From Hydrurus foetidus (lineage: Eukaryota): 39,273 nt of DNA. Positions 1,215 to 39,273 of the stretch are shown here, piece after piece. Made by a program: the position numbers and the translations under genes. Every line of letters starts with the position of its first letter. Position 1 is the first letter of the stretch. The stretch lies in NCBI GenBank assembly GCA_900617105.1, contig UYFQ01000418.1, positions 1-39,273 of the forward strand, written 5' to 3'. Below the pieces are notes generated by a model that was not told the origin of the DNA, searched no databases, and saw only the letters and a program-made list of their open reading frames with translations.

Positions 1215-1396
1215 TTTATTGATATAAATTACTCGCCATATAAGTTCCAGTAACACCAAGTGGTCAGCTGTCTGGATCCCTCCGCCTCCTGGAGAGGTGG
1301 TTCGAACCCCCTTGAACCGACATTGTAACGAAGAGCAACGTTCAAGTGACAACACAAAACTACTTCGAAAGTTACGTTGCAGCAACAGGGTTTGAG

Positions 1397-3921
1397 ATGG
1401 ATGTTTCGACAAGCCAGAAGAGGAAGAGGCCTCTGTTGGAAGATGCCGCTGAACAGGGGGCAAGTGGCCTTGATTTCAATACCGCGAAGAGCTGCAAGAT
1501 AACTGCGGATGCGGAGGCAACAACTCCTAAGGAAACGGACTCGTTACATGCGAACATCTCGTCTCCACTGGACGGTGCTGAGAACAGAGAGCGCAATGCT
1601 CTTGTGACGACGGGTGAAATGGATGTGCAGCAGGAATCTCAATTTTCTGCTGCTGCACCGACATCAGCTCTGAAACAAATCTTACAACAACAGTGGAGTG
1701 CCGAAGCGCAGAAAAGTTTGAGGGTAGTATATGATGACAGTGGCAGAGATAACGATTTCGCTGATGAGAGCATCGGGAGTGAGATCATGTCAGACATCGA
1801 CACACATCACGGTGAATTAAAAATTAGTCTGCCTCCCAGAAATGGAGTCACAGTCTCAGTCGATAGCAAATCAATCAACGGAACCGATTCAGTCCCGCAG
1901 AAAGCAGCGGTGGCAAAAAGTGCTCCGATGACCCGATCCTCTATCGGCAATGTTAATACGACGAAAAGCACTTTAGTGACTCCAATCGGTGATATCGATC
2001 ATGTCGATGGTGACAACAAAGTTGCTGCGGTGACTGTAGCTGTCTCGAACAGCATATCTTCATCATCAAAAGCTCGAAGCCACGCAATTGCAACTTCAAC
2101 AGGGGCTGCGGATCGCATCGTAACCTCTCTCTTAACTCCGATTCTTCCGACCAGTAGAAAAGATGATGGTGGACCTGATATCAACATTCCTGTCATTGAT
2201 GATACTACGAGATTAGTGAAGAAACGCAGTAAAAGCAAGTTTGGCATCTGCTGGCTATTACTTCTTGGCATTCTAATTATCTTCATGGGCTTCTGTTTTT
2301 TTACGTATGTTCCTACAAACAATAACACGAGCATGAATAAGAGTACAACAGTCGAGGATATTCTGAGCAACGGTAATGTATCTGAAGCACTGCTACTCCC
2401 TACATTGGATGATCCTATATTCACAAGAGGTGCTCAATTTCTCCAGCAATTAAGCGGCTTAGAACAAGAAGTTCTTCTTCTTTCAGAAATACTAGACCAC
2501 GCTGCAGCAGTAGAAACAGAATCGGAAATTCTCACAATGAAATCAAATGCAGAACAAGAAGAGTTCAAACTGGAGACAGACAATGCTCTGATAGAATTGG
2601 AGTCGTACATATTTAAACTGGAAGAAGAAGGAAAAGTTCTCATTAAGAACGGTGCAATACTTGAAAAAGAAAGTTCCGAACTATTTTCAGAAGGAGAAAT
2701 TACCGATGAGGAACTGGAAATGAAAATGGAAAATCTTCAAGAAATGCAATTAAATGTGGAAAATCTGGAAACTGTTATTGATCGCATTGAAATTTTGGTG
2801 GATGAATCAGCAGCTAATTCTGAGATTGATCATTTCATCGACTCTGACTCAGATGAGCTTGTCACACTCGCAGAATTGGATGAAGTTGAAGTTGAAGATG
2901 GGTCGCCAAGGAGTGCAGAAGATATAGAGAGGGATACTGTTATTGCAGGTGCGGTATCGGCTGTTGAGAAAGTGTTGTCGACTTTAGAAAAAGATCTTGC
3001 AGTATCTGTGGGTGAAGTTGACACGGCGATTAAAAAACACGTGTCCGTACAAGCAGATGAAGAGTACGTGCGCACCGCAAAATTGTTGGCTGATGAGGCA
3101 GCAGTAAAATTGCAAGCAGAAATTGATAGTGAAGTCGAGAGGGAAAAAGAGATTGAAATGAAAAAGAAAAGAAGGAAAAAGAGGAAGAAGAAAAAAAGGC
3201 GGAATTACTTGCAGTAGAATTGAAAAAAGCTCAACTTGAAAAAGAACAAAAAGAAGTGGATTTGATGGGAAATATTCTGAGTGGAAGAATATTGGATTAT
3301 GCTGTGTGGCCAAGGGGAGGTAGGGTAATCCCTCCGGGGCAAACAATTTCAATGTCGGGTAAAGCAGTCGTACTTACGTCACTACCGTACGTTCTTTCCC
3401 AAGGCGTGTTTAAGAGATTTCGACATAAATTCCGACTGGAAAAAGAGTCTTCTGATGCAACCGTCCTTATCAGTCATGTTGCGGAGATGAGTGGTGGAGT
3501 TGAGAAAGATGAGTTTAAATGCTATTCTTTCAAGGGGGACAAAGGAAACGTAACTGTCACAATGCATTCCGCTATTAGAGTTTCTCATATTCAAATATTA
3601 CACAGCCCGAAAAATTCGAATCAATCAAACGCACCCAAAAAAATTAAAATAATAGGATGGCCGGAAAAACCTTCTTCATCAATGTCGGTTATAGAGGGTC
3701 AAGATATTGGAACTTTTGAATATAAAGTGAACGAAAACAAGGGAGAAATTTCGTATTTACAAACTTTCCCCATTTCAAGTTCAATCCCCATGGGGATGGA
3801 ATTGAATGAGTACGTACGGGAATTCAAGGCGATAACAGTATACGTGCTGTCGAATCATGGAGACGTAACGCACACAAGTATTTGTCGTATTAAAATTCTA
3901 GGTGAATTAGCTGCTGTTTAA
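1397..3921 (+). CDS. SUN-domain (Sad1/UNC-84) inner nuclear membrane protein, split by a 1-nt frameshift near 3151-3155
   Basis: First ATG at 1397 is followed by an NLS-like KRKR, a long disordered N-terminus, one TM helix (FGICWLLLLGILIIFMGFCFF) and an acidic coiled coil. ORF 3220-3921 has SUN motifs (DYA..GGRVI, CYSFKG..G.VTV, SNAPKKI, YVLSNHG...TSICRIKILG). Adding one A to the A-run after ATG at 3148 fuses the frames (MKKEKKEKEEEEKKAELLAVELKK). Confidence 0.88.
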
Positions 3922-5869: not shown

Positions 5870-5882
5870 TCATCATACCGTC

Positions 5883-6206
5883 TGTTGGGATATATCTGAG
5901 ATCCGTGGTAGCGCACGAACGCGATAGTACAGCTCGGAAGGTTCTCAAGGCCAAGGCTCGTGAAACGAGACTACCGTTAGTCAACGATCACTTGTTAATT
6001 AGACTGTGCTTCATCAGTCAAAAAGGCCACGAGTCCAAACAATGCATACGATCATATCCTACTCTACGGTTGCAGCCTGTGGATCCCGTGTTCACTGATC
6101 CACCCGCTGCACGTATGCGTACTTACTCAAAAAAGCGTACTGCAGTACGCTAAACAACGTAAGTACACAGATTGTGTTCGTGTCATAAACTATGACACTT
6201 CCAACA
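5883..6206 (-). repeat. 3' LTR of Copia-1 (324 bp)
   Basis: Matches 11152-11475 except for 3 C/T differences counted by eye. Confidence 0.97.
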
Positions 6207-6216
6207 CACCCCTATG
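6207..6216 (-). other. Polypurine-tract-like site of Copia-1 (CATAGGGGTG on the element strand)
   Basis: Abuts the 3' LTR; the identical 10-mer abuts the Copia-2 LTR at 27716-27725. Confidence 0.75.
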
Positions 6217-6272: not shown

Positions 6273-9200
6273 CTAATCTACATTGCTTCCTTCCCATCCG
6301 GTTATTCCTTCTCTCTTCGACTTGAATTGAGCTCCTTGCAGCGGCTTCGTCAGAAGGTTCGCGTACATTGATTTTGTTCCGAGGTGGACTACTCGTGCCT
6401 CGCCCATGTCCACCCGCTCCTTAAGCCAGAAATATCTGATCGCTATATGCCTTGTCCGTTCCGCCGCTGACCGCCCTCTCTCGATGAGCGACATGCATGA
6501 CATGTTGTCCTGGTACACCGTCACTGGACCACACGCATATCCTTGCCCTATGATAAAATTTCTCAAATGCAGAGCTTGGTTAGAAGAGTCGGATAGCGCC
6601 ACTAGTTCCGCCTCCGTGCTTGACTTCGTCACTATTTGCTGCTTCGAAGACTTGCAGTGCACCGCACCCCTCTGTCCCACCACAACGCAGCTTCCCGTAT
6701 GTGACTTTCCATCAGGATGTACCCCGAATGCTGCATCGATTAGGACACTCACTTCTATTCCCTTGTCTCCAGGCGCAAACACGATCCCTCTGTCTTTGGT
6801 GCAGCACACATACTTGAGCAGTCGCTCTAGTTTAACGAGATCATCACTGTTGCACTTGGTCACTCTCGTGGCCAGGAATGCGACTGCAGTCAAGCAGTCT
6901 GGCCGAGCACGCTTAGCTAGGTATAGCAATTTCGCAACGTGGCGATGGAATCGCACCCGCTGCTCCTCCGTCGCCATCATCACACATTCCCTCACATCGA
7001 ACAGCCCCTCAGTGGCAGGCGTTCGCGCACCCCCAATTGTCCCGCTTTCCTTGAGCATGTCCTCCACGTACCCACACATGGACACCCTGGCTACACCTGT
7101 TATAGACATATCGAAAACCATACCTAGATAGTTCACGACAGGTCCGTTCTTCCGTGTAATGTCACCATACTTCTTGATCAACCCAGTCGCGAGTGACTCG
7201 ATCATCTCCTTATCTATGCTCGTGATCATCAGATCGTCCACATGTACCGCTATGGTGCATTGCACCCCGTGTTCATTGTGTCTGTTGAACACGCAGATGT
7301 CGTGAGTGTTAGCTACATATCCCAACTCGGACAGGGTATCCCTCAGATTCTCATACCATAAGGCAGCTGACTCTACGCAGCCGTATAGCGCTTTTTCCAG
7401 ACGCACTACCACGCGCCCCTTCATGTCCACATAGTCAGCATACTCGGGTGCTAGCTTAATCATTATGTTGGTCATGTTTCTGTCCAGGCGCATGTGGACC
7501 GTGAGTCCTGTCGTCATATCGGCATTGAGAAATGCTCCGCTTATGTCAATTACCGTGATGCATCGTCTCTCGTATGCTGCAATGCTCAGTAGTGTGAACA
7601 CTGAGCTTGTTCCAACGGTCGGTGCGGACAAGTCGTCATACATGTCTCTGTCCTGTTGGTCTCCTCCAGCGACTAACCGTGCCTTTAATTTTTCAAACTC
7701 ACCACTCGCCAGAAACTTCTCTTTGAGGAACATGCTGGATCGGATGATCCTATGTTTCTCCTCGCGAGAGAGTCGTGTCAGATCAACTGGTGCCCACACC
7801 TTCTTGCTGATCATCTGTCCAAGCTCCTTCTCGATGACGCTCACCGCTGCATCACCCCTTGTTCGCAGCGCTTCGTTCACAGATATATTCAATACACGCT
7901 CTCCCCAGTGGTCACCGTCCCCCGAGTAGTCTCTCGTCAGGAGTGCAAGTCCCCCCTTTTCCCCTCTGAAGTAGCTCATGAAGTCTTCTCGCCTCATTCG
8001 CGCAAGTGGACCTGGCTCGGCTGACATGCGCGTCTCGAATGTATCTCCTACAGTGTCATCCCGTGCACCCTCCGTTTCGCCAACCCCAGCGTCTGAGCAG
8101 CTCTGTGCTGTGTAGTCCACCGCAACTCCTTGCGCATCGAACGCCTCCTCACTGTCTTCTGTACGCACATATGGGCCTACTTCCATACCTCTCAAGCTGT
8201 TGATGAGATCTTCCATCTCAACTGACTTTGGTTTCATGGGGAGACGCACTGCCGCGATCGCGTGGTCCACATAGTTTGGCTGACTCAGGTCGTACATAAT
8301 GTCCGTTGTACTGCATTCACTGTGTTCCGGTTCATCCGGCATATCGTTGATGATGTCTGGGAAGTCTTCACTGTCTAGTGCAGCTAATGTCGGGTCAATG
8401 CCATTGTTTACTGCTGCCTCTATCGTGTCGGGCAGTACATCGGGCATCCCTTTCTTTGAGTCACCGTCCTGCTCAAATGATGTCGCTCGTATAGCAAGCT
8501 CCCCTTTTCCCTTCACTCGTCCATCCTCTAGAGCCAGTTCGTTCAGACGCTTGATAACAGATTCCGGCATGGGGAGTATCCTAAACTGGTCGCGATTCAC
8601 TAGTCTACCCGATCCAAGTGATAGCATTCTAACCGTGCCAGTCCTATTCCCCAGAGGGAGCATAACAACACAGTCTTCTGTTCTCGACTTCAGTGTGTTA
8701 TCAGTGTTCGGGACAGTGCATTGTGCATAGTCACCAAACGAGCATCTGAAGTCCCTCTTGCCGTCTGGCTTCCTCCCAATGAATGCTTCACGAGGGCTTA
8801 TCGCTGATTCCCGTAATCCGCTTGGTTCATAGTTGAGCCTGGATATCACGTACAGTACGCACATCGTGATACCCACAGTCGATAATGTAAAAGGTAGGTG
8901 ATACGCAACGTGCGACCGCACTCTCTCTTTAATTACTCGAATTCGTCTTTCTACTATCGCTACGTGCCCGCCAGCACCACTGATATCTACTTCTACTCCG
9001 AGCTTCCCAAGCTCGTCCACGAGGCTGATGACGGCCCCCTCGCCGTCGCTCATGATGACAGACGTCCTAAAGTTCTGTGACGCGAGCACTGCCAGGAAAT
9101 GGTTGATTCCTTTCCGCACCTCCGTCGCAGCTCTCGACGACTTCTTCGACACGATGTTGTTCAAACTGTATGCGATAGTAAGTCCAAGTGGAGTAGCCAC

Positions 9201-11125
9201 TCCGATTAGCATAGCTATTTTGTCTATAAACATTATATCGATTGATAGCACCTGATCTCTTTGCACGATTTTAGTGCTGACGACGATGTCGGCAACTGCG
9301 GTGGCTCTCTTGCATGTCTTCCCTTTTAGTGAAGCTACATCCTTTCCCCAGATGGCGTCTGCGATTTGAAAGTCTCTCGCAGATACTTCGAAGTTGCTTC
9401 CCGCGTTAACAATCGACATCGCCTGATCGACGGTCGGGAATCCCATTCTTGCCAGTAGCTCTCTTGCTCTCCGAGCTCTCTCTACTTCACGCTTCGTGAA
9501 CGCCTTAGTGTTTTCAACCACCGTTGAGACTAGAGCTGCTTCCGATTCCACGTCCCGCCAATCGCAAGAGTAAAAGCGCCCTTCACTCCCCACGATATGC
9601 TTCCGTCCGAAACAGTAGATTCTTTCGCTGTCCTTTGGCTGCAGTGTGAAGTAGTCCTCCTCGTGGTTATATCTCACGGCTGCTCCCGCGTCAACTTGCG
9701 ACGCGAATGATAGAACGTTGGCCGATGCTGATCCGCTGTAAAACACGGTCCCGAACTCCCCAAACTCTCCTTCACGATCAACGGAGACGTCAACTCCCTG
9801 CTGGATGCCACTCACTTTTATAGATTTTCTCGCTTTTCTTATTCCAGTAAGTAACTCGGCGTTGTTGAATATGTTCAATGAAGCTTCGTTACCTAGAAGC
9901 ACATCATATCTCGAGAAACAGCATATCTCAACAGATGAGACTAATGCAACACCCCACTCATCATCCTGCTCGCTCTCATTATCTGCGTCTGGTTCCTCAA
10001 CCGATACGTGGACTTTTCCAGATGATGATTTGCGTTGAGGACAGTCTCTAGCATAGTGCCCTTTCTCTTCGCACACGTAGCACTCCACATCGCTTAGCTG
10101 TTTCTTCTTGGCTCCACCAGTCTTGACTCCCTTCTTCTCTGTGTCTTTGGCCGCGGCTGCTTGTGAGCTGGCTGTAACGTACGCGGCGTTTGGTGCACCG
10201 GGTGTGGGTGTGAGTATGGAGCCGTTCTTGCGCCAGCCCAATGCGATGCGGAAAGCTCCGGCAAGTGTCTTGGGCAATGCATCAGGTTTGCGGCGGATGG
10301 CGTCGTTCTGCATATTGTCGTGCATATTTTTGTATCTTCTAGGGTCCAGTTTCCCAAGGAAGTCTAGTGCTCTCTTTGAATCGGACACTTCTGCCATCCC
10401 CACAGCGCGGTTTGCTTCGACCTGCTCATCGAATCTGTTCTTGAATGTGTCGAGCAGTTCTCTCTCCCCTTGTCTCATTGATCCGTACTTACGCTCTTGC
10501 TGGTGCTGATTGATCTCCATCATAGGATCATCGTCACCGAATATGTGGGTAAGGTGAGTCTTTCTGATCATTTCCCACAGCATGATACAGTCGAGGGTCA
10601 TGTATGCTTCGTGGTACCCCTCCTCCTCTCGCACTCTGGTCTGTGATGCAGGCGACACATGCGCCTCCACATCATGGGGTACAGCGTACGTTCGTTCTCC
10701 TTATGTGATTTGAGGTCGCGTTTTCTTTGAATATAGTCGTCTTCTCTGAATTTCGCCCTCGCTTTTGCAGACGCTTTTCTCCTTCTTGCATTTCTCGCTG
10801 CTCGATCCGCACTGCGTTCCGCCTTCTCGCGGGCTTCAGCTTCGAGTTGTGCTGGGTTGGCGACTGGTTTCTCGGCGTCAGAAGCCTCGTCTTCTGAATC
10901 CGAGCTGGAACTCTCCTCAGATGAGTCTGCAGGGTAATCCCTGTAGGTGAGTCTCGGATGCTCGTATCGCTTGTTGGTGGTAAAGAACATCCCTACGATT
11001 CCGTATAGTTCGGTTGCAATTGTCTGCATGTGTTCCCTCCATTTTATAATGTTGCTATTTTTTCCGTACTGAAGCGTACACTCCTCTGTACTTTTAGAAG
11101 CCTCAACGGCACGTTTTGGAGGCAT
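6273..11125 (-). pseudogene. Copia gag-pol polyprotein, disrupted by a 2-nt (TG) duplication near 10657-10660; protease catalytic Asp appears as Gly
   Basis: Zinc knuckle CYVCEEKGHYARDC; PR-position motif VLLGNEAS; integrase SIDIMF / MSDGEG / VERRIR; RT KARLVAGG, IDISGAF, LYG, HVDD; RNase H IDAAF, KSSTEAE, QDN, ANLLTK. Removing TG joins MMWRRM to SPASQTRV. Confidence 0.92.
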
Positions 11126-11139
11126 TGAAGAATGCCGTT

Positions 11140-11151
11140 ACAGTCTAATTA
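11140..11151 (-). promoter_or_regulatory. Primer-binding-site position of Copia-1 (TAATTAGACTGT), complementary to a 12-mer inside its own LTR
   Basis: Directly follows the 5' LTR; lacks the TGG start of tRNA 3'-end PBSs; is the perfect reverse complement of LTR positions 11265-11276. Confidence 0.8.
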
Positions 11152-11475
11152 TGTTGGGATATATCTGAGATCCGTGGTAGCGCACGAACGCGATAGTACA
11201 GCTCGGAAGGTTCTCAAGGCCAAGGCTCGTGAAACGAGACTACCGTTAGTCAACGATCACTTGTTAATTAGACTGTGCTTCATCAGTCAAAAAGGCCACG
11301 AGTCCAAACAATGCATACGATCATATCCTACTCTACGGTTGCAGCTTGTGGATCCCGTGTTCACTGATCCACCCGCTGCACGTATGCGTACTTACTCAAA
11401 AAAGCGTACTGCAGTACGCTAAATAACGTAAGTACACAGATTGTGTTCGTGTCATAAACTATGATACTTCCAACA
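11152..11475 (-). repeat. 5' LTR of Copia-1 (324 bp)
   Basis: Direct repeat of 5883-6206. Confidence 0.97.
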
Positions 11476-11483
11476 CCGTCCAG

Positions 11484-12309
11484 CAGGGGTTGCACGATTG
11501 ACAGACCACATTCCGTCTTTTTTGATACAGTCACAAACAGCAAGAAAATCACTTTTGAATGGGGTCTTTTCAGAGCAAAATTTCACACCAGAGATAGCTC
11601 GAGCTGTGAAGAAAGTATCTCGACCTCAGTAATTCGACCATGGTAAGTTTAGTGGCTGAGTTAGTTTTCAATGAAAATGCTTCAAAAAATTGCAAAGTGG
11701 GTCTCCGCACCGTGCATTCAAATTTTTATCATCATTTTCGGTCATAACTCAACAACCAGAGAAGTTGCGGGTGATTTTAAGCTTGATTTTTATTTTGATT
11801 CATATCGCCGGAGACTGTCGAAGACTTGATCTACTCTAATTATGGGGGGCGATCAAGTCTTCGACAGTCTCCGGCGATAAAGCTGACTCGGTGGAGGGGC
11901 TCTCTGGACACCAAAGTGTGGTACAGGAGTGTCAAAAATCAACTTTGCAGCCCGAGCATTAAAACTGCACCAGCTATCATAGAATAATTCTACTACTATA
12001 CTAGAGAAGAATCAATCTTAAAATCACCCGCAACTTATGACCGAAAACTATGATAAAAATTTGAATGCACGGTGCGGAGACCCACTTTGCAATTTTTTGA
12101 AGCATTTTCATTGAAAACTAACTCAGCCACTAAACCTACCATGGTCGAATTACTGTGGTCGAGATACTTTCTTCACAGCTCGAGCTATCTCTGGTGTGAA
12201 ATTTTGCTCTGAAAAGACCCCATTCAAACGTGATTTTCTTACTGTTTGTGACTGTATAAAAAAAGCCGGACTTGAGTGGGGGCGTGGTCTGTCAATCGTG
12301 CAACCCCTG
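11484..12309. mobile_element. Non-autonomous foldback/MITE-like DNA element with ~300-bp terminal inverted arms
   Basis: Ends CAGGGGTTGCACGATTGACAGACCAC / GTGGTCTGTCAATCGTGCAACCCCTG; arm 11484-~11788 is the reverse complement of ~12010-12309 with small indels; CCAG flanks both sides (11480-11483, 12310-12313); no coding capacity. Confidence 0.9.
11803..11879. repeat. Perfect 29-bp inverted repeat with a 19-nt loop inside the MITE
   Basis: TATCGCCGGAGACTGTCGAAGACTTGATC (11803-11831) / GATCAAGTCTTCGACAGTCTCCGGCGATA (11851-11879). Confidence 0.95.
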
Positions 12310-12805: not shown

Positions 12806-15329
12806 ATGCTATTACGACTGGCAATGAGTTGGAGTATTATACATACAGCTGGAGAACTATGTTCTGAAGCTAATAAATTGAACAGCGACAAAAGCCTAGA
12901 GCTCACTGTTGACGCCTCTGCAGTTCATCAATCGTTCAGAATTTTCCGCAAATCACTACTGGCTTTGAATATAGATATGCTCATTATTTCACCAAGAGAA
13001 AAAACTGGGAAGGCGATGGATTCATTTCATAGTCTTGGAACTTTTTCTAATGGGTGGAAAATAAAGTTTAACCTACCAATTACTGATCCAATCTCTGAAG
13101 ACTTCGGCAGCTGTATCAACTCAAAACGCGACCTCATTATCAAACTGAGTCTCAACGGTCCCTCAAATTATAACGACCTTCGTATATTAAACTACGAGTT
13201 ATTGCTAAAGGAACGGGAAACGTCATTTCTTTCACCTACATTCGTCCCTCGGAAGAAAGTTTCTACCCTCGGTAAGAGGTACTTGGACTCACTTACTTCG
13301 AAAATCATTTCTGAAGTTAGTACAAACTATTCAACAGATGATGTTGTTTCATTAGCTTTAATGAATAGCATAGTCGAGGTAGCTGGGAGAAAGAGCAGAA
13401 AATTAGATGTTATTTCAAATTTATTTGGTGCTGGGTCAAATGATATAGATGGCGAATGTAATGACAATGAATCAACTGCTTCGAGTAATTCTGATGAATC
13501 CATTTCGGACAGTGAATTCAGCGCGCTATGTGATGTCATACCAGTAAAGAAAATTAAATATTCCACCGTTGAGAAGACCGCTATTATCACTCTTTTTGAT
13601 GAAGTCAAAGGCATCTATGAAAAAAAAACAACGCAAAAGCAATTACGCGATTGCGAAAAGAGTAAAATGCATGCTAAACAAAATTGAGGGATACGGCGAA
13701 ATAAAAACTCGTAATGTGCATAACTGGTATAAGAATAAAAGGAAGGTGCTGAAAAAAAAAGGAGTAAAAGTAATTGGTTCGTTTGAAGAGGAGGTCCTTC
13801 GTAATCTAATGATATGCGCCTTCGAGAAAGCTGATAATGTAAGCACCACAGGAATTTGCAATTATTATTTATAACTAAAAATGAAACTAATTTATAACAT
13901 TAATTTGTGCTACAAAAATACAGGACAATCCAGATGCTGTTCCAACTGCAAGGATAAATTTAAATGTGGCATACTCTTACACAATAATGTCAGCTACAGC
14001 AGCTGAGGTTCAGAAGCAAAACAATTGGACAAATGATGCAGTCGTTCAAAAATTAAAGTTTAGCAACAATTGGGTGAGGAACTTTTTAAACCGTAGTGGC
14101 ATGAGAAAAAGAAAAATAACTAGAGATGACAAAGCAATTCCGAATGCTGCTGATGTGGCAGCTCAAATGCAGGCGGGACAACTTCTATACAGGTCGCACG
14201 AACATAGTTCAAGTAACACATGGAATATGGATGAAACGTGCGTTACCTGGGCTATCGGTCCACTGCATATGTACGTACCCCAGAACCAGCAACGTGCGTC
14301 AAATGTGGGAATACCGAATACCAAGCTCCGTATAACAGCGGTTATAACTGTGAACGGACTTGGTGATTTTGCACCACTGATGTTCATCATCAAACACTCG
14401 GTAAGCTCAGAGAAGAAACCTGATCAATCAACAATGACAGTGATTAAAAGAATGCATAACAGCTCTGCGTTGAAATTTGATGCAGCACATGGATGGGAAT
14501 TATTATTATGGGAGAAAGAGATGACGATTAAAAATGTAACTGCTGTGCACAAATGTTGGTATTTGCGTCATAATGTTACACATCATATTATCACTAGTCA
14601 GTACAAAGCTTGGAATGATACAACTAGAATGATGATGTGGGTTGAACTTGTTATGAAGCCCATTAAAATTAGGGATGAGAAAGTTTTACTGTGGTTCGAC
14701 AACTGTGGTTGTCATAAAACACATGCAATTTCAAATACATTGAGTGAGTTAGACATTCGTGTTGCGTGTTTACCTCCAAACATGACAGCTATACTTCAAG
14801 TGCTTGATCTTGTTGTTAATGGACCTTTAAAGGCGCACGTTAGAAACAGTAGAGCAAATAAGATAGTTCAGTGCTTTAAATCTTACAAGATAGCTTTAGA
14901 TGCAAATGATGCTAAGGATGTAGCTGATCGAGTAGACTTACAATTTGTTGCCCCCAAGCCAGAAATGGCAGAATGTATTGAGAATTTGATATATCTATTT
15001 GGGAGAAATGGTGATTTTTAGAAAACGAAATTTAAGAAAGGTATTACATCATCATTTGTTAAGACGGGAACTATACCTGTAAATCATACTGACTCAGATG
15101 ACGCCGTATTCGTAGAATACAAAGTGGAGTCTATTTGTGGAACCATGAAAGTCATTCCATTAGGAACTAGACCTTGCGATGTTTTTGACTTAGTTGAACC
15201 TGAGAAGCAAGTGAAATTCAAAACATGATTATGAGTTTTGGTGATAATGAGTTTAATGACCATGAGGTCGTTGATGATAGTATGAGTGATGATGATGATG
15301 ATGATAACGATGATGATAACGATGCATAA
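12806..15329 (+). pseudogene. pogo/CENP-B-type DD35D transposase: intron 13839-13923, frameshift in the A-run at ~13620-13628, in-frame TAG at 15019, acidic tail
   Basis: HTH-like LKFSNNWVRNFLNR; catalytic motifs WNMDET, LLWFDNCGCH and LPPNMTAILQVLDLVVNGPLK (35 residues between the 2nd and 3rd D); the phase-0 GTAAGC...ACAG intron restores frame. Start codon uncertain. Confidence 0.88.
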
Positions 15330-18275: not shown

Positions 18276-18917
18276 ATGACGTCAGCTGGTCCCAGCCAGA
18301 AAGATTTGGCCCTCAACGTCGACTATCTTCAACAGTTTTTTTGGAGCCTGACGCCGCCGCAACCAGCAACAATTTTACCTCAATCGTTTGACGAGATCAT
18401 AGATGTCGGGAGAGCAGCACTTCGCCGACAAGCAACAGCACAGCCACTCTGGGACTTCGTGACCATTAACTAAATAGACTTTAATGATGTTGGCGCAGAC
18501 TTAAAGCGCTTCCTTTTACCCCAATTAATTTCGATCGTCGTGACTCCGCAGATAATTTCGCAAATGGCTCTGGGAAATAAGTTCATTGCGATTCTAATCG
18601 CGGTCTCACAACTGGAACTTCTTCTAATCTTCACTCTCAGCTCCATAGCCACGAAAGCACCATCAGCATGGAAGCGGTTCTCCTTTCAGCATCGTTTGAA
18701 CTCAGCTACTACAGATCACTGTTACCCCGTCGATAATTTCGCATACGGCTCTGGGAAAAAAGTTCATTGCGATTCTAATCGCGGTCCCACAAATGGAACT
18801 TCTTCTAATCTTCACTCTCAGCTCCATAGCCGCGAAGGCACCATCATCATGGAAGCGGTTCTCCTTTCAGCATCGTTTGAACTCAGCTACTACAGATCAC
18901 TGTTACCCCGTCGATAA
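18276..18917 (+). pseudogene. Possible ORF remnant of unknown function running into the 181-bp array (in-frame TAA at 18471)
   Basis: From ATG 18276 (MTSAGPSQKDLAL...) the frame continues through a single stop into ORF 18540-18917. No recognisable domain. Confidence 0.3.
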
Positions 18918-19021
18918 TTTCGCATATGGCTCTGGGAAAAAAGTTCATTGCGATTCTAATCGCGGTCCCACAACTGGAACTTCTTCTAATCTTCACTCTC
19001 AGCTCCATAGCCGCGAAGGCA
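18540..19021. repeat. 181-bp tandem repeat, ~2.7 copies
   Basis: GATAATTTCGCA recurs at 18551, 18732 and 18913. Confidence 0.92.
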
Positions 19022-19080
19022 TAATGACTGCGAATATTATGTAAAATGTTTTGTATTGAAATTGTAAAGTACAACAAGCG

Positions 19081-24731: not shown

Positions 24732-24916
24732 TTTAGTTTACTTTGCATTTCATAATTAGTTCATTTGTGCGGCACATACAATCCAGTAACATGAGGTGAT
24801 TTGGTGCAGTATGATATGTTGTAATTAGAAGACATTTGACAAGATTTGATATGATAGTAATGATAGCAGAAAAATAAGTAAGTGATAAGCAGTTAAATGA
24901 TAAACAATCAATCTTC

Positions 24917-26050
24917 TGCTGGTGCTAGTACAGGTGATGATTCCGAACAAGTAGACAGCACGAAGGTGCTCCTGTTGTATCGTTAGAGATGCGATGCTGG
25001 TGCTAGTACAGGCGACGATTCCAATGAAAGGGAGAGTTGTCACAACAACTGTACAAGTCAGTATGCTCATGAGACATAGGACAGTGCGAAGGTGCTCCTG
25101 TTGTATCGTTAGAGATGCGATGCTGGTGCTAGTACAGGCGACGATTCCAATGAAAGGGAGAGTTGTCACAACAACTGTACAAGTCAGTATGCTCATGAGA
25201 CATAGGACAGTGCGAAGGTGCTCCTGTTGCACCGTTAGAGATGCGATGCTGGTGCTAGTACAGGCGACGATTCCAATGAAAGGGAGAGTTGTCACAACAA
25301 CTGTACAAGTCAGTGTGCTCATGAGACATAGGACAGTGCGAAGGTGCTCCTGTTGTACCGTTAGAGATGCGATGCTGGTGCTAGTACAGGCGACGATTCC
25401 AATGAAAGGGAGAGTTGTCACAACAACTGTACAAGTCAGTGTGCTCATGAGACATAGGACAGTGCGAAGGTGCTCCTGTTGTACCGTTAGAGATGCGATG
25501 CTGGTGCTAGTACAGGCGACGATTCCAATGAAAGGGAGAGTTGTCACAACAACTGTACAAGTCAGTATGCTCATGAGACATAGGACAGTGCGAAGGTGCT
25601 CCTGTTGTACCGTTAGAGATGCGATGCTGGTGCTAGTACAGGCGACGATTCCAATGAAAGGGAGAGTTGTCACAACAACTGTACAAGTCAGTGTGCTCAT
25701 GAGACATAGGACAGTGCGAAGGTGCTCCTGTTGTACCGTTAGAGATGCGATGCTGGTGCTAGTACAGGCGACGATTCCAATGAAAGGGAGAGTTGTCACA
25801 ACAACTGTACAAGTCAATGCTCAGAGACATAGGACAGTGCGAAGGTGCTCCTGTTGTACCGTTAGAGATGCGATGCTGGTGCCAGTACAGGCGACGATTC
25901 CAATGAAAAGGAGAGTTGTCACAACAACTGTACAAGTCAGCTGCTCATGAGACATGGACAGTGCGAAGGTGCTCCTGTTGCACTGTTAGAGATGCGATGC
26001 TGGTGCCGCCAGTGATGATTCCAATGAGGGTGAGAGTTGTCACAACAACT
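24917..26050. repeat. 126-bp tandem array, ~9 near-identical copies
   Basis: GACAG(T/C)(G/A)CGAAGG recurs at 24954, 25080, 25206, 25332, 25458, 25584 and 25710, then with small deletions at ~25833 and ~25957. Confidence 0.95.
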
Positions 26051-26508
26051 GAGCAATACAGTTAATGAAGGATGGTCGCTGAGGTTGGCCGCCGCGGAAG
26101 ATGGTTGGGCTCCGAGGATACGGGTGAGCTCGAATGAGATCATGATGCGCCGCTGGAGCTCCCATGCTGGCGTTGCCGCCAGTGATGATTCCAATGAGGG
26201 TGAGAGTTGTCACAACAACTGAGCAATACAGTTAATGAAGGATGGTCGCTGAGGTTGGCCGCTGGATACTGGTGAGCTCGAATAAGATCATGATGCGCCG
26301 CTGGAGCTCCCATGCTGGCGTTGCCGCCAGTGATGATTCCAATGAGGGTGAGAGTTGTCACAACAACTGAGCAATTCAATTAATGAAGGATGGTCGCTGA
26401 GGTTGGCCGCTGGATACTGGTGAGCTCGAATAAGATCATGATGCGCCGCTGGAGCTCCCATGCTGGCGTTGCCGCCAGTGATGATTCCAATGAGGGTGAG
26501 AGTTGCCA
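26000..26508. repeat. 148/170-bp tandem array (~3.3 copies) sharing a core with the 126-bp array
   Basis: AGTGATGATTCCAATGAGGGTGAGAGTTG at 26011, 26181, 26329 and 26477. Confidence 0.92.
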
Positions 26509-27349
26509 GAACAGCTACGATCGCAACTAATAGCAGCGTTGTTAGTACTTCCTCCGTGAAAGAATGGTTGGGAAAAGTCGAAAAGAGCAGTGGTCGAGAC
26601 ATTTCATTTCGTCGCGAAATGGTTTTCCTCGAGGAAGATCTTTGCTTTCCTGTTCAATGTTGAAGAAAGAATTAGTTTCGAAGTGAATTTCGTGTATTGC
26701 TGAGGTTGAATCATGTCACGTGTGGATCATTCGATGATTCGAACTTTCTAGCGCGGAACTGGATGGATTTGGAGTATCCTGAAGATTTTTCTTCGTCAGA
26801 GGACAGACTTTTGTCGCCGGAAAGACGAATTTCTGACTCAGAGGAAGTGAGTTTGCGTCTTCTGCGTGCTCTCTACTTGAGTAGTGCTTGACGATTTGGA
26901 TGACACTGAAGAAACTGAGCTGGCAGATGGCAGATGCGCCAGGAAAACTGACATGAAAGTCCGTTTCGGAAGTTCGAAAATTAGGAGTAATAAGGAATTT
27001 CTTAAAGGGATATTAGGAGTAATTAGATCATCGGATAATAGGGGTAATATTGAATTTATTTGGTGGAATGTCTCTCCGCGAAACGGCCGATTCGCCGGCG
27101 AATCACGCATTTTTTGAGATGAAACTCTTAGGCTCCCCAAAAAATTTGAGCGGTGGTTTGTCCGTTGTCCGACTTTAGACCCCTCAAAAATTTCAGACCC
27201 CCGATTTCTGGTGTGTGTTCGGTAAACCGTTTCCAGAGGAAATCACAGCTTTCAGAAGTTGAAATCGCCCCGTCATATTCAACTTTGAAAAAAATGAAGA
27301 AGGTTTTTCAACGAAGTTTGCCGAACCCAGCGACTACTTCCACACTTCC

Positions 27350-30300
27350 TGTTGTACACTAAGATTCAGTTTACACTGAATGGACAACTATATCCTTCCT
27401 GGGTACGTGCTCCTTCTGCAGGTTCAACACGTGCGCTAGCAGCTATCCCGGGCTCAAGGTGAAAGCTCTGCTGGTGTGAGTATTAAGGTAATTAACGATG
27501 CAACATCGCTTACATCGTTCATGGAGACAGGCGAAAAGATCGCGCTGTCCCGCACAGTCAAACATGGTGCACTTTCATCATTTTGATGTTCCTGGGTTAA
27601 AGGAACCTGGACCGGTGGAGTAGCGACCACCACACAGCACACGACGTACGAAACGTCATCAAATGTACATACGTAATAACTTATACGGTTACTTAGCTCA
27701 TTAGTTATTCCGACACACCCCTATGGCGTGAGTCGTCGGGTTGGTGTACGCGAATGAAAACGCAATAGGATTCAAAAATGCTCCGTTTACTTGGAGTTTC
27801 ACAAATGGTGTATCATAACATGATTTCGTAGTGTAGGGAAGTAGGGTAATAGTGAGGTTGACTTTAATCGTGACGTTAGATGATTTATTACACACAGGGT
27901 AATTTTAGTATCATAAGGTCTGACTGATCCGAATGAGCATAGAGTTAAACAATACTAAAAAGACTTTATGTAACACGCAAACGAATGCACTTGAAATTAT
28001 TTTCTGACTGCTAGTACTATCTCGTTCCAGAATCGGGTCTTGGGTCTGGGTCCACGTTCCTCGCTCTTTATGTCTCTGTCAGGACTTTCTTGGGGTCTTC
28101 AGTGTGCGGTCTTGGTCTCGAATCGCACTTGACGGGGTAGAAAAAAATGATGGAGAGGGGTAGCAGGAATGGTGGAGTCTTGGTGTCTTGAGTGGTCAGT
28201 CTTCGTCATGATGCGCACTGATGGGGTAGTAGAGTTGGATGGGATGGCAGTAGGAATGACGGAGTCTTGGGGTCTTGAGTGTTCAGTCTTCAGCTGAAGC
28301 GGACAGCGGCGTTGTAGTAGGGTAAGACGGAGGGGGTAGCAGGTCGGATGGAGTCTTCGTCAGTAAGTGTTAGTTCTTCTTGGACGTGGGGTATGGGAAC
28401 CGTGGGTTGGATTTTGTGCGTACGGTCGGTGCGGAGTCCTCAGTCTTGCAGCCTTCTGCGTACGTGAGGGTACATGGTGTGGTGTTGAGTAGCTCCTTCC
28501 TGAGCTTCTTGAACAATGCCCCCTATAGTGGTTTAGTTAGAATATCTGCAATCATGTCAGTAGTAGGTAAATACACAATATCAATATCGCCGGTGATAAC
28601 CCTGTCGTCTAGGAAAAAGTATCGATTGTCTACGTGACGCGTCCGTTCGCTGTTCGAACGACCGTTACGCATCAGTTGTATCGTGGACTGATTGTCCTGG
28701 TATATGAGTGCAGGAGGTTGAGGGTGTCCCTGGCGTTCTAGGAAGTTCCTAGTCCACAGCACTTGGTTAGAGGCGTCGCTGAGTGCGACCAACTCTGCCT
28801 CCGTGCTCGACTTTGTCATCAGTCGCTGGGTTCCGCTCTTAGCGTAGATCGCTCCCTTTCCCAGGGTGATCACGCAGCCTGTGTGACTTTTCATATCGGG
28901 ATGTATGGCAAAGGATGCATCGATGTATGCAATAACATGGATAGGTTCAAACACTTCGAAAGTTATACCCATGTGTTGGGTGCCCCATACTGTACTGTAC
29001 TGTATTGTACGGGTCAGCTTGTCGTAGTCGTCCCTTTGGGGCTTCAGTACTCTCTTAGTTAGGACGCCACGGCTGTCAGGATGTCTGGCCTCGTCCGCTT
29101 ACTCAAGTAGAGTAGCTTAGCTGTAATAGAATGAAAACGCTCACGCAAATTATCAGGTAAGTATGAGTCGGATTCAGCAGGTGTAGTAAATAGGTTTGGC
29201 CGTGCGGGTGTGGTAGCCGTGCCCGGCATATCCCCGCACCCCTCAATGAAATCTTGTACAAATCCCTCCATTGTCATCTTGACCTTCCCTTCCTATGTAA
29301 TACCTATGTAATTTAAAACTTGTATAGTTTCAATTTGATTTATAACATCATCCACACGAGATTTAGATGAAGCAGTGATAATCATATCATCAACATGAAT
29401 TACGAGTGAGGTTTGTGTTTTATCCGGCTCAGTTCGGTTCAATACGCAGATATCATATTCATTAGCAATATAATTGAATTTAATTAAATCACTGGATAGT
29501 TTGTTATACCACAATTTAGCAGATTCAACACATCCATATAATGCCTTCTTAAGTTTAACAATTCATGTTCCATTGTTATTCATGTATTTGTTATATGTTG
29601 CATCAATAAATTAGTGCAGCAGTCAGTTGTTTGTTCAAACTCATGTATACAACATGCTCACCGGTCAGCGGCACCGGGGAAGTCAACAGTGGCAACAGCG
29701 CGTTTCTGTCTAGCAGCAATTGCAGTCAATATGAATACACTAGATGTGCTAGCAGTAGGTGATGCGCCATTGTTGTAAACATCACTATCTTGTAAGTGCC
29801 CACCGGCTACTAGTCTAGATTTCAGTTTTTCGAACATACCATCATTTTCTAAACATGCTACTCGGTATGATGGTGCGTTTTTGTTGTGGGGTGAGGGATT
29901 CATAAGTTACACCTTCCCAAACATTATTATCACACATTTGTTTAGGTTCAGATGTGATGGAATCAACAGCTATCACCCCTAACTTATTAATTCCTTCATT
30001 GACAGTCACAGGTGAGTTTGATTATAACAGGTTCCCAACATATTTCTTATCCCATTTACCTAGTTGATGGTTTCTACCGCTTCTACGCAACACGGGTAAG
30101 TTGATAACAGGTGGATCATATGCAGTGTCTATTATGGAGTCAGGTGGTGTGGATACTTCTGGGTGTACAATTACATCAACAAAGTCATCTTCATCATCGC
30201 TTGTACCAAATATATCGTCTATCAATGCTTGATCGTATTTTGGTGTGGAAACATGTGTGTCATCATGTGTGTCATCATAATATAGTTCGTCATTATCATA

Positions 30301-31045: not shown

Positions 31046-31406
31046 GCCGTAAACTTAGTCACTCGGATTGAGATTTATCTCCCGATACTTGACTATCTTG
31101 TGGTTGCTTGAGTTTCATCTCAGCAATCCCATACTATTGTGCAGAGTTAACCCAGTTAACTTCTGCCCATTTCTCGCTTCAAGCTTTGCTTGATTGACGT
31201 CCGTGGATAGCTTTGTCTTCCACGCCGTAAACTTAGTCACTCGGATTGAGATTTATCTCCCGATACTTGACTATCTTGTGGTTGCTTGAGTTTCATCTCA
31301 GCAATCCCATATCTTTGTGCAGAGTTAACTCAGTTAACTTCTGCCCATTTCTCGCTTCAAGCTTTGCTTGATTGACGTCCGTGGATAGCTTTGTCTTCCA
31401 CGCCGT
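31046..31406. repeat. 178-bp tandem duplication in the leader of element A
   Basis: GCCGTAAACTTAGTCACTCGG at 31046 and 31224; GCCGT again at 31402. Confidence 0.95.
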
Positions 31407-31610: not shown

Positions 31611-34560
31611 ATGCCGTTATCCGATGACTCTTCGGAGATCTCGCCGTCGCTCGCCGAATTAACTACTCAAGTAGTTCCGGCAGCGACGACAGTTTCAAAA
31701 ACTCAGTCGACACCAACAGCGCCGACAGCAGTAGCTGCGTCTGATGGAACTGATCGACCGGTATTCCCAGTAACAATACTGGGACCTACCAACAGTTCCA
31801 ATCAGGCGCCGCCTAATCGTCATAACGACGACGACGACGACGTTCACACAACGCGACAACAAGACAATGTCACGTTGCGTTCGTCAGACGCAAACCGTCA
31901 ACAGACACGCCACAACAGCGACCCTGACCGGGATGATGACGACGGCGATACAAACCCTCGCCGCCGTATAGATTCACCCCCGCAACGATATCTCCGTCGT
32001 CAGGGCCTCGACAGTTACGACAACTCAACTCGTCGAAATAATCCCTTCGACGGAGATGCAACGGGCGACTATCCGCCTACTCCGAATCAACAGAGTGGTA
32101 GCGAAGACGGTGGTGACGTTAATCGTTACGATAACCGTCAACGCAACGATTCTAACCAGCGTCAATACAATGACGATAATCGAAACAACAACGATTATCG
32201 GCGTTTTAATGATGACAATCAAAGTCACAACGACAATCGTCGTAACTACGATGACTCCAACCCTCCCAGGGACAACCGTAATACGGGCCCTTCATACGGT
32301 ACGGAGCACCGTAACGACAATCGTCACGATAACGATGGACGTCAATATAACGATGATCGCCGCAACGACAATCAACGTCAGAGCGATAATCGTCGTTATA
32401 ACGACAATTACCGTCAGAATGACGACAGTCATGATTACGACAACGAGGGACGTCGCGGGTACAACACCCAATTCAATGACGATAACAGACGTCAATATGA
32501 CGATCGACGCAACAGCGACAATCGTCGCAACGACGACAACCCACGTCAGAATGACGGGCGTCGCGATAACGATAATCGTCAACAAGACGACAACCCTAAC
32601 AGGGATAATCGTAGAGACACCTTCCAACGTCCCAACGATAACCCCAAAGGGATAATCGTAATTACGAGGATTCTCGTCGTAATGACAACCCCAACAGGGG
32701 GAATTATTCTACGAATACTCGCAATTTCGATAATTTTCGCGACGACAACAACGACAACTTCCGTCAGGGAGATAACAACCCCAACAGGAGAAGTCGTCGA
32801 GAACCCCCACAGGGTTACGACGACAGTCCCCCAGGGAAAATCATCAAGGGGACGATCGTCGCCAACATGATACCTCGAACAGGGGCAATCGTAATACTGA
32901 CAGTCGTCAGTACAACGAAAACCAATATGAGGACGAACGTGCGACTGAGAGTCGTACGACTCCACGTGCGTCCATACGCGTGACCGACAACTCTAGATTG
33001 CTCGAGAGTCGCGATACGCGCATCCCCGAAGATGTGGGGACAGTAACCCGCACAGCGGATGCTCCTCGCAAACGCGCGTTACCCCCTCAAGAGGGTCCAA
33101 CGTCACGCAAGCGACAAGCCTCCCCACCAGGGTCACCGGAACGTCCTACGTACGTACGTACGTTTACTGGTGACACCGATTACAATCCCCAACCCCAACG
33201 AGTCATCCAGGAAATCCCACGGGAAATTCGGGTTCCGACCCCACTTCCCCTGGATCCTCCAGACATCGTGGTGCTACCCGCAACGGATCGCATCATCGAT
33301 TACGAGCTGCAAACAGCAGCGTTCCGAGCTGCAGGGGGCGGTCTGGACCCCAACGCAGCGCACCCAGTACGACCGCCGATACCACGGTATATACATGATC
33401 GTACGTCACCGATCAACGTACCCGCGGTACAGGTTGCCACACCCAGTGCGACCCCTACAGCGCTTGTAGTGGGTGGACGTGCTGTGGATGATGGTTCCCG
33501 ACCTATATCCGCTATTGCACTGCAAACGGTACTTTACGTTCTCAACGTGAATGCGTCCAGCATTATCGGACAGGATGCAGCGCGGGAGTTTTATGAGCAC
33601 TCCCAGCGCTGGACCAACAACTATGATGTTGGTCAAGTCATCTCGACTAAAGCAGTCAGATGCATTGATGATCAGATCCATACGGATCAAGATTATCCAT
33701 ACTCCGAGGAGACACGTAAAGTGTGGCTCCAAACTTTGACGGTCCCTCAAGTTGCGCACTTAGTCCTGCGCTACTTTCGCGCGGACACGCAACTCGGGCA
33801 GTCACTGGCGGAGCATTTCTCCGAAGTACATCTCGCCTTCTGTTACAACAAAAGAGAGATTGAGATGCGCTGCATGACGCAGTTTCGTGAGGTGGTTGAG
33901 AATCATGTACAAGTACATGGCACACTCAGCACTTCCGACCATGCCGCACTCACTCTTATTTTAGAGAAAAAGATGCCTCTTAACGGTGCCATCACCGCCA
34001 AATACAAAGAGCATAAGCGCGTCAACCCGCATGACGTGGACGATTGGGAATTTGCGATGCGTCGCTTCTTCTCCCAAGTCAATGCGGTACGACAGCTCCA
34101 GCTACACGTAGCGGCTTTCGGGGACCCCAACGACATTTACTGTCACCCCGCGAGACAAAATCCGTATGGGTTATCTCTCACGACTAACCCCAAAACCCTG
34201 TTGGTTGGTGCGGCACTCCCAGCATTACCACCGCTGGCACTGCCAACAACACCATTCCCGCAGTGTAACTCGTGTGGACACATGGACCATCTGCTTAAGA
34301 GTTGCCCACACATGTGGATGGTGGACTTGAACACCAACCACAATGTCCCGTGGGACCACTCCAACATGGGTCGCACGTGGGCACAGTACGGTCACGCGAC
34401 CTATCCTCTCCACGACCGCATCCCTGGTCTGGGCCGCTTCAAAATTCAGATACCCCGTCGTGAAACAAACTTCACTAACGAAGTACTGAATAAAGCCCAC
34501 CCCCAGGAGGTGGTCATAAGAAAAATACCAAGGGAACCCCAATCATGGGGGGAACTTTAA
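31611..34560 (+). pseudogene. Gag-like protein with a very long D/N/R-rich low-complexity N-terminus (frameshifts near 32647 and 32830) and a CCHC zinc knuckle
   Basis: DNRR-type composition continues across two single-base frame changes into ORF 32980-34560; CNSCGHMDHLLKSC is C-x2-C-x4-H-x4-C. Confidence 0.75.
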
Positions 34561-34612
34561 CCGGAGCGCCACCAACAAACCGCGATACGGTTCGGGTGGA
34601 CAAAACACCACT

Positions 34613-35928
34613 TTGGCCAACAACACCTCCATCAACGCAGCCAACAGTGGCCTACCACTCCCAGCCCCATACGATGGTACGTTAACTCATACCACGGTGG
34701 TGGATGCATTGGTAGTGGCGATACATGCGGCTAACACATGTAGCCCTACCGATACACCACCATCTTTATGTATACTCAACTCTGATATACTCATAACTGA
34801 TGCATTGGAGGTCTCAACCCCTTCCAATGCTATATCGGATAACATTAACGATGTTCTCCCCACATGTCTTCACGTGTTAAAGCCACCCCCTACCTCCCTG
34901 CCGCTAATCTCGGAGGTGCTGGCGGCGTGCCATAACCAGACCGACATGTCGGAAATACCGCTCATAGGTACGTTACCGTCTGACTCAATTGTAGCAGCGG
35001 TACACTCAACAAATCCTAATGAACTCCTCTCATTATTGGTGTTCAAGGATGAACGAAGAAGCTTGCAGGGACACGCCCCCACCACAGTCGCGTCAGCACC
35101 CCAGTCCACGGGACTTAGTCTTACAGCGCACGCGCTCCAAGACACGGGTAGCATGGCTGGCGATTTTGTTTCCAAATCACTGCTTGTCTCACTCGATGCA
35201 CTTGCTCATTGTTATGTGTCTTCAACCGCACTTAACGTTTGTAGCGGTCTCGATGGCACTTGTTATAGGTGTAATACCTTAGTCGATTTAGGCCTTACTT
35301 TTCTCGATGATAGTAATATTAAGCACACTATCTATATCACTTTTAGTGTTAATCCTTTTGCACAACTGGATCTGATCATCGGACGCAAGTCCCTGAATCA
35401 ACACAACTTGTTTGTGCTGACACCGACACGTATGGGCTTTGACCCTACGTTAGTCGAAACGTCACATAGCCCGGATGACATCGGTCTACTTCCCTTAAGG
35501 GCAGAGTCCGACATCGGTACAGATCCACATACCGACGTCTGTTGTCATCATAGTGACGCTGTCGGATCGCGTAGTCCTTGTACACAGTGTCGCCTGATTA
35601 CCGACACTGCTGACAATGGAGACGAAGGTCACTCGAGCACCCACCGTATTCCAACAGTGGGAGAAGAGTGGGGTCCATCTGCGCTATGGACGGGCAGTGG
35701 TCTTAACCGCCCCCCTTCTGAGACCGGGACGAGAGTGAACACAGTAACACTTAACGCCGCGAGCGTTTTGCCGTGCGGAATCTTGCCGTGCGGAATCAAT
35801 CTCAATGGAGATGAGATTGATGATGACAAAACGGATGCATTCGGTCCGTTTCTTTCTGCATTGATGAAAGACCCTACCCCAACAGGTAGGGCAAACGATG
35901 TCATCTCGACAATCACCTTTGGTGGGTC
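34613..35928 (+). pseudogene. pol N-terminus with a retroviral-type aspartic protease, cut off by element B
   Basis: ALQDTGSMAGDFVS and downstream LDLIIGR motifs; coding character ends at ITFGGS. Confidence 0.78.
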
Positions 35929-36494
35929 TGTTATAGTTTCCACTATGTATATATCACACGTACGTACGCACGTTGCTCACAACCACAAGTTTTTCATTCC
36001 AGTTTTCTGTTTCTGATTCTTAGATTGCTTCAATTCGTGATGCACTCGTTGCCTGTCAATCTCACTCACTTTTCATCGCTTTAAAACTTTAACTGAAACA
36101 CCTATACCGATACGGCTTCTCTTAGCCATCTCCGCTATTCTGGACTGACTTTCTTGTCAGCTAGAAGATCTTCGTCTCCTGCTTTCTTGCAGAACGAATC
36201 ACCGCTTTTCGTCACTTCACGACGTGCAACCGGCATAAAAGTACATTTCTCGTTCACGCACTTCGCGCAATCGAAAGACGCTTTCCTCGGAAAGTTTTTC
36301 AGTATCTTATCTCGTAGAGGCCTCGACCAATTTGCACAATTACTCTACTCTGAGAAGATTCGGACATAAAGCTACGCAAACTCCGAAGAAGCAAGAGTCA
36401 AGAAGATTTTGTGTAAGTCTTTGTTTCCAATCTGAAACTTCCGTCTACAGCCGATCTACAAATTCTCTTTTCCTATACTCTGGCTAGAGATTCC

Positions 36495-38131: not shown

Positions 38132-39273
38132 GAGTTTGCAGGACCTTCTCTCACTGCAATGCAAGGAGAAGATCATCCTGCCGACAACCCCAAAATATTT
38201 GACCCAGACAATACCATATCGACGGCTCTCATTGCTCAACTAGCGTCTGCAATCTCAGTTGATCCAAAAGACCTGTGCCACCCGTTTATTCGGCCAGGAA
38301 CAATACGTAGTCCCGACGGATCCTCTACAATTGTTTTCGATAAAGGTCTACTCGACACTGGCGCCCAAGGCAGCAACTTCATTTCCGAAGACCTGTACTC
38401 GCGTCTGCCGGCCATCATTACCAATTTATCGAGACCCATCGATCGTGTTGTTCGACTAGGAGACGCACGACACCTCTTCATACAACTTGAGGTACCACTA
38501 AATGTCTCCATTACGGACTTCAATGGACAAGACCATGAACACACTCTATGGTACAGCGTCCTTAAAGAACTTAGCCATGACATCATCATAGGACTTGTTG
38601 ATCTCATCGGTCCTTTCTACACTCTGTTCGAGAACTCAGTTGCCACATCGCGCCATATCGCCAAGTCTCGTGATCTCGGTAGTCACCTATCCGCCTTGAC
38701 AACGACAATTATGACCTTAGCAACCAACGATCCAACTGACCATATGATGCAGCAAACTTCTGAGGCAATCAAGTTGGAACACACTGTCTACAAGGATCGG
38801 AAACGTTCAATCCAATCCAGCGTGAATACAACTGTGTCTCTCCTTGCTCTACAAGATGGCTCAACAGTTGAAACACTCCATCATCCTTTGCACGGCAACG
38901 TCTATGCTGACGAACGGATGGAAACAAGATACGACATCTTGACCTCACAATTATGCACCCCAACCACAGGTCTTGTCATGACACCGTTGTCCAATCCGAT
39001 TGATGCACTCGATCCCGAGGAACTCGATACGCCAGACCCTACCAGTTTCCCGGACGACATACTCGGATATCTCGCTACAACTCCTGAAAGTGCACGCGCA
39101 ATTTACCGCATCGATCTCGAGACCCATATCACAACTGAAATGCGAGAGGCTTGCCAGCATACAGTAGACCTACTGACATCAGAACTAGCATACGATGTGT
39201 TCGTACCGAGCACCTGGACTGGCATACGCATGGATCCATATCATCTCGGTACCAAACCCGGCCTTCCAGATCA
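38132..39273 (+). CDS. pol of element B (aspartic protease and linker toward RT), in frame with gag after a single TAG; partial
   Basis: Open frame from 38132 to the window end: EFAGPS...GLLDTGAQGSNFIS...HDIIIG...VFVPSTWTGI. Absent from the ORF track because it has no stop within the window. Confidence 0.85.

Follow-up and report, generated by a model that had tools for sequence, protein, structure and literature searches.

A stretch of 39,273 nucleotides from Hydrurus foetidus (contig UYFQ01000418.1; this whole stretch is referred to as the window) raised the question of how a Copia retrotransposon located in it could prime its reverse transcription. The primer-binding site (PBS) region of Copia elements normally pairs with a host tRNA. 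In the first-pass annotation it was claimed that the 12 nt directly after the 5' LTR of this element (TAATTAGACTGT, 11151-11140) lack an initial TGG and have ACAGTCTAATTA, a stretch inside the LTR (11276-11265), as their exact reverse complement, and this was found to be the case. The site inside the LTR begins 125 nt from the LTR end, and the match is exactly 12 nt long.

Structure of the element and its self-complementary site

The full-length LTR retrotransposon of the window extends from 11475 to 5883 on the minus strand and is of the Copia type (Table 1). TG...CA ends of the LTRs, a short target-site duplication and a polypurine tract (PPT) before the 3' LTR were found, as in Ty1/copia elements, and the gag-PR-INT-RT-RH order with an RT of the RVT_2 type also agreed with this group. 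When the polyprotein was compared with Pfam, RVT_2 (E 5e-25) and a zf-CCHC zinc knuckle were detected. The domains followed each other in the Copia order, namely, zinc knuckle, protease motif, integrase D-D-E motifs, RVT_2 and RNase H; the integrase D-D-E motifs, which were recognised by their consensus, are located ahead of the RT. A PPT ending in GGGGTG or GGAGTG was found again in relatives. The two LTRs differ at 3 of 324 positions, and the element is a recently inserted Copia copy. All three differences are A in the 5' LTR and G in the 3' LTR, and they are located upstream of the proposed RNA start. The sequencing runs that hold the element came from freshwater sediment, biofilm and air samples.

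Table 1. Coordinates of the features of the Copia element in the window
Feature	Position	Strand	Remarks
Target-site duplication GACGG, 5' side	11476..11480	-	
5' LTR	11152..11475	-	324 bp, TGTTGG...CCAACA; direct repeat of 5883-6206
Predicted self-primer ACAGTCTAATTA	11265..11276	-	would form the first 10-12 nt of the RNA, with its start at 11276 or 11274
Predicted PBS TAATTAGACTGT	11140..11151	-	directly 3' of the CA of the LTR
gag, N-terminal part	10658..11125	-	tblastn match to P0001 residues 1-156, 71%
Rest of gag, protease, integrase, RT, RNase H	6273..10700	-	ORF of 1475 aa; 78% to P0001
PPT end, AGGGG + TG	6207..6213	-	directly before the 3' LTR
3' LTR	5883..6206	-	the self-primer sequence occurs here again
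Target-site duplication GACGG, 3' side	5878..5882	-	

The ATG of gag is situated 26 nt past the LTR. This copy of the element is probably defective: gag is shifted in frame near 10655-10660, where 2 nt at 10655 are missing from many contigs, and the protease motif contains Gly at the position where P0001 has Asp. The gag frameshift may be an assembly error, since a neighbouring host gene is split too and its homologue, 98% identical, is whole. This host gene, which encodes a SUN-domain protein (window 1316-3921, plus strand), lies in two frames, and P0173, a single protein of 868 aa, is 98% identical to it across the part searched, which suggests indel errors in the window assembly. Just beyond the element, at 11800-11880, a long palindrome was observed in a stretch where the contig depth was very high and opposite-strand joints occurred; it is possibly a MITE or another repeat that was the target of the Copia insertion.

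Complementarity arising by chance in AT-rich sequence was considered as an explanation of the match. The core of the PBS is AT-rich, and 12-mers with an inverted partner no more than 324 nt away occur at 45-47 of approximately 38,900 window positions per strand, chiefly within palindromic repeats. Against this explanation, a match of at least 12 nt was obtained in only 3 of 20,000 dinucleotide shuffles of the LTR, with an offset of 0-3 nt allowed. In the modelled RNA starting at 11276, all 12 pairs had probabilities of 0.80-1.00. The criterion used for the prediction of self-priming in PMC6317226 is LTR complementarity of at least 10 bp located 0-5 bp after the 5' LTR, and here 12 bp was found.

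Covariation of the PBS and the LTR among relatives

A full-length alignment of 34 homologues was used for a metagenome search that covered 23 of 64 parts, and 79 loci were listed of the 556 confirmed. Many of the listed loci were circular contigs, in which a single, collapsed LTR separated RNase H from gag. A locus was regarded as testable when the start of the LTR was defined by the PPT, candidate ends were defined by the inverted repeat and gag was found downstream. A narrower first PPT rule gave 20 testable loci, and the widened rule gave 39. The other listed loci had no RNase H end (2), were of insufficient length or lacked a PPT under this rule (28), or had no gag detected downstream (10); three of these last ten have matches of 14-17 nt all the same. 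For each testable locus, the best match over the candidate ends was taken and compared with 200 shuffles in which the end was chosen in the identical way.

A perfect match of 10-25 nt between the PBS and the element's own LTR was found in 28 of the 39 testable loci among those listed (each p<=0.04), and in all 28 its first nucleotide was at offset 0 or -1 relative to the end of the LTR. Among the 11 loci that failed the strict rule, four had 9 nt (L008, by eye, L017, L024 and L052), L008 being left out of the 28 since its top match was inside gag, and four had 12-18 nt at ends that were missed by the rule (L051, L055, L068 and L073). One further locus, L032, cannot be judged. A clear LTR match was absent in two of the 39 tested loci, L021 and L035.

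When the PBSs of the 28 loci and the window were compared with the LTRs of foreign families, at least 10 nt matched in 5 of 812 pairs, and the median was 6; two of these five pairs were those between the window and L002, which have ten letters in common. With 28 of 39 listed relatives self-paired against 5 of 812 cross-family pairs, chance complementarity, which had a vanishingly small probability, was refuted by this control. The 29 elements have 28 distinct PBS 10-mers, and the identity of their RT-RNase H regions has a median of 46% and a range of 34-91%. Even in L057, L064 and L065, which are 86-91% identical, the PBSs differ, and every one of them is perfectly paired. Covariation of the LTR and PBS across related Copia families, which the first-pass annotation had set as a check, was thus observed: in 28 of the 39 listed testable loci, the pairing was kept with changed letters. 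At the level of sequence comparison, self-pairing is a real, lineage-wide trait.

Positions 2-5 of the PBS are A, A, T and T in 26, 25, 23 and 21 of the 28 loci, respectively, and this core may be a candidate cleavage or dimer signal. Five of the 29 elements have weak helices (-4.8 to -6.7 kcal/mol). In the tree, the window clusters with L001, L002, L020 and L024 (support 0.88), in which the matches are 10, 10, 12 and 9 nt long, respectively. The tree was built by FastTree from a query-anchored alignment without L032; because it was midpoint-rooted and had no outgroup, it gives no origin or direction. Searches of viral contigs found no relatives of the element, and a search with an alignment of gag alone matched 188 metagenome stretches, none of which were confirmed. 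A subclade consisting of L014, L016 and L078, with ends of the TGA...TCA type, has self-pairing of 14-16 nt, the arms being approximately 460-550 nt apart.

Sister families were also present in the runs that hold the element. In one of them, seen at loose ends in runs X2 and X12, the PBS is one base shorter (TAATTGACTGT), and in contigs of X18, X4 and X12, the LTR site has a gap of 1 nt at 11270, which restores the pairing. The linkage of the shortened PBS with this gap is deduced, since the two were seen on separate contigs. A third family (a loose end in X4) has yet another PBS. The summed contig depth, a rough measure, was approximately tenfold higher over 11260-11289 than over most of the downstream LTR and peaked at 11245-11289 in four runs; this peak at the self-primer was read as cross-family conservation of the site. 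In close subfamilies, PBS positions 10 and 12 (11142 and 11140) are variable, and no change of the partner at 11274 or 11276 was found for these variants among the rows listed; the helix that functions may therefore span no more than 9-10 bp.

The last RNase H motif of the element (6345-6362, minus strand) is A-N-L-L-T-K; its Asn takes the place of an Asp in other Copia elements. Asn was found at this position in 115 of the best 120 homologues (5 were not matched). In the tree, 11 rows with Asn formed one clade (support 0.996), whereas other self-pairing relatives have Asp; therefore, this Asn is not required for self-pairing.

The edge of the helix and the identity of the primer

In 22 of the 29 elements, the arm inside the LTR begins at a pyrimidine|A (Y|A) step (background 0.14), and in 23 its first nucleotide is A; in the window, a C|A step is located at the 5' edge of the predicted self-primer. 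A Y|A step fits the initiator consensus. At positions 2-7 upstream of the arm, pairing was at the level of chance (43/168). Both the Y|A edge and the chance pairing upstream of it are what a transcription start would predict. In the window, starts at 11276 and 11274 fit equally, and no TATA box was found upstream of the proposed start. Contigs of the RNA run X20, with low depth and a small share of words, covered parts of pol and the 3' LTR, and no 5' LTR bins were covered.

These observations bear on the possibility that the element primes itself with a different molecular end, that is, with the 3' LTR copy at the 3' end of the RNA or with the 5' end of a second RNA (a co-packaged RNA or a short LTR transcript). 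The self-primer sequence is indeed present in both LTRs, the 28 loci differ in the distance from the arm to the LTR end (55-234 nt), with no flanking helices that would fix a fold in cis, and the palindromic conserved AATT core could favour RNA-RNA pairing between two molecules. However, with a primer at the 3' end, U3 would sit upstream and the pairing need not end at an initiator-like step, as it does; the edge of the arm and the chance pairing beyond it thus argue against such a primer. Moreover, the cis helix is near-certain in the predicted RNA of the window. For a 5' end acting in trans, the same data fit cis and trans alike. Taken as a whole, this explanation is considered unlikely.

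It was also considered whether the helix could be a regulatory or structural switch (between translation and packaging, or for masking of the start site), the true primer being a host tRNA, a half-tRNA or another small RNA. The ATG of gag is only 14 nt past the helix, and half-tRNA priming is known in Copia lineages according to the available text of PMC6317226. A pattern of the anticodon arm and loop, built from general tRNA anatomy, fitted 8 of the 29 PBSs; in shuffles, it fitted 6.2 +/- 2.2 (P 0.28), so that the count was at the level of chance, and the PBS of the window, which did not fit this pattern (Osser, Bryco, Bianca type), was not among the eight. TGG was absent from the first 8 nt of the PBS in all 29 elements (28 relatives and the window), and no tRNA genes were found in the window. 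Considering that 28 different PBSs occur, that the matches reach 25 nt and that one site has a 1-nt indel, the PBSs could not be served by a fixed set of tRNAs. In addition, the helix begins at the LTR end, where priming has to start, in 28 of 28 listed loci. A switch accompanied by such a primer was therefore regarded as improbable.

Proposed mechanism and comparison with known systems

The best explanation of the data is that reverse transcription of the element is probably primed not by a tRNA but by its own RNA, of which the initial 10-12 bases would serve as the primer. RNA polymerase II would initiate at the C|A step (position 11276, or else 11274), and the capped 5' end would fold onto the PBS approximately 125 nt downstream, forming a 12-bp helix that ends at the CA of the LTR. 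By analogy with Tf1, the RNase H of the element would then cut at or near the 3' end of the helix, after the conserved ...AAUU[A/G], and leave a free 3'-OH, from which the RT would copy U5 and R; both the cut and the enzyme are deduced from Tf1 (PMC7175516, PMC4600332, as far as their text was available). The PBS would be rewritten in each cycle by plus-strand copying of the primer, which would explain the fast joint change of the primer and PBS.

Self-priming like that of Tf1 in a Copia element had been proposed in the first-pass annotation. The self-priming part of this proposal is well supported by comparison, namely, by the family-by-family covariation, the sharp initiator-like 5' boundary, the compensatory indel and the absence of a tRNA pattern. 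The likeness to Tf1 did not extend to the flanking helices. According to the available text of bioRxiv 10.1101/2022.12.06.519325, Tf1 requires a three-duplex 'pretzel', whereas flanking duplexes of the Tf1 type were not enriched in the 29 elements (mean z -0.12 upstream and +0.31 downstream) and those of the window did not differ from shuffles (p 0.79 and 0.90), in a test based on the simple duplex energy of 16-nt flanks, which could miss short helices. As far as these sequences indicate, a single helix appears to suffice, unlike in Tf1.

The PBS of Tf1 pairs with 11 nt of its own LTR, as described in the accessible part of PMC7175516; in the present lineage, the helix is 10-25 nt long. Tf1 and Tf2 of Schizosaccharomyces pombe, which belong to the Tf1/sushi group (Ty3/gypsy chromoviruses), are thus similar to the present element in that the PBS is complementary to their own LTR over a similar length and matches no tRNA. 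In contrast, Tf1/sushi elements have the Ty3/gypsy order RT-RH-INT and a chromodomain, whereas the order found here is that of Copia with an RT of the RVT_2 type, and no Pfam match to a chromodomain was obtained in the element or in the eight lineage proteins scanned. The proposed mechanism would work like that of Tf1, and the element is outside the Tf1/sushi group. Self-priming of Tf1 was demonstrated by experiment, whereas that of the present lineage is deduced from comparison.

Self-priming in Copia had been thought to be undescribed when the site was first noticed, but it had already been predicted for the TAR lineage of plant Ty1/copia elements, in 89% of 203 elements according to the available text of PMC6317226, where an earlier self-priming proposal for Houba and Osr-1 is cited (Neumann et al. 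2019). As far as that text goes, TAR elements are similar to those studied here in belonging to the Copia superfamily, in the 5-bp target duplication and in a self-priming prediction made by an identical criterion (a minimum of 10 bp adjoining the end of the LTR). The hosts of TAR are land plants, whereas the present host is an aquatic microeukaryote. When eight lineage proteins were compared with Pfam, no gag or integrase family was matched, and RVT_2 was matched at E values of 1e-20 to 1e-25. Plant Copia proteins match the gag and integrase families of Pfam, and they match RVT_2 far more strongly. The present lineage is probably not a member of TAR, and an origin separate from TAR is likely given these weak matches in comparison with plant Copia.

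In the fungal GalEa Copia elements, no tRNA PBS is described in the available text of PMC5445492, and a short palindromic core, CTAATTAGT or CTGATCAGT, directly follows the LTR (Conserved Hairpin Site). This core resembles the TAATTA core of the present lineage. However, the partner in GalEa is located 12-41 bp downstream, and no complement in the LTR is reported in the same available text, whereas the partner here is inside the LTR and variable between families. Among the look-alikes of the RT-RNase H region in the Atlas, those of known origin were mostly from Bacillariophyta (3 members each). For an HVA22-like host protein, the Atlas likewise pointed tentatively to diatoms (0.85). CoDiI and CoDiII are divergent Copia lineages of diatoms (Maumus et al. 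2009, PMC2806351); in the available text of that paper, no description of a PBS was found, and 'tRNA' did not occur. No description of self-priming in Copia elements of diatoms or other protists was found in the literature searched, to which most subscription papers did not belong.

Experimental evidence of self-priming comes from Tf1, a Gypsy element, and for Copia, predictions alone were found (TAR). The present lineage provides strong comparative evidence for self-priming by a Copia RT-RNase H, apparently without the scaffold of Tf1. It also bears on the hypothesis, put forward in the accessible part of PMC3601003, that tRNA priming was a late addition to LTR elements. More tentatively, with the balance of probability somewhat against the whole of it, the relatives could represent a deep, large Copia lineage of aquatic microeukaryotes that is wholly tRNA-independent. 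Its mode of priming would have an origin separate from those of Tf1/sushi and plant TAR, or would be an ancestral state that was kept. The mechanism would be minimal: a single helix would reach from the cap to the end of the LTR, the pretzel would be absent, and AAUU would act as a conserved signal for the cut; in the subclade of the present element, the last acidic position of the RNase H is occupied by Asn.

For a direct test, the lineage offers young families whose primers are short and defined, and the edge of the helix predicts the transcription starts of such elements. LTR finders that demand a tRNA PBS will miss or down-rank them.

Several other repeats were observed in the window. The regions 24828-26559, 18508-19050, 31046-31401, 13891-15021 and 32776-39271 contain tandem arrays (126, 148, 181 and 178 bp) as well as the remnant of a DDE_1 transposase; the long ORFs found there resemble another retroelement, and 38132-39271 had no Pfam match. 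A second, decayed Copia element of the same broad lineage is located at 27350-30009 on the minus strand, with a broken RT-RNase H region (28499-30009) and a PPT. Its 5' LTR and PBS are absent from the window. In its 3' LTR of approximately 366 bp (27715-27350), the sequence GTTAATTA was found approximately 140 nt from the LTR end, a geometry like that of the self-primer.
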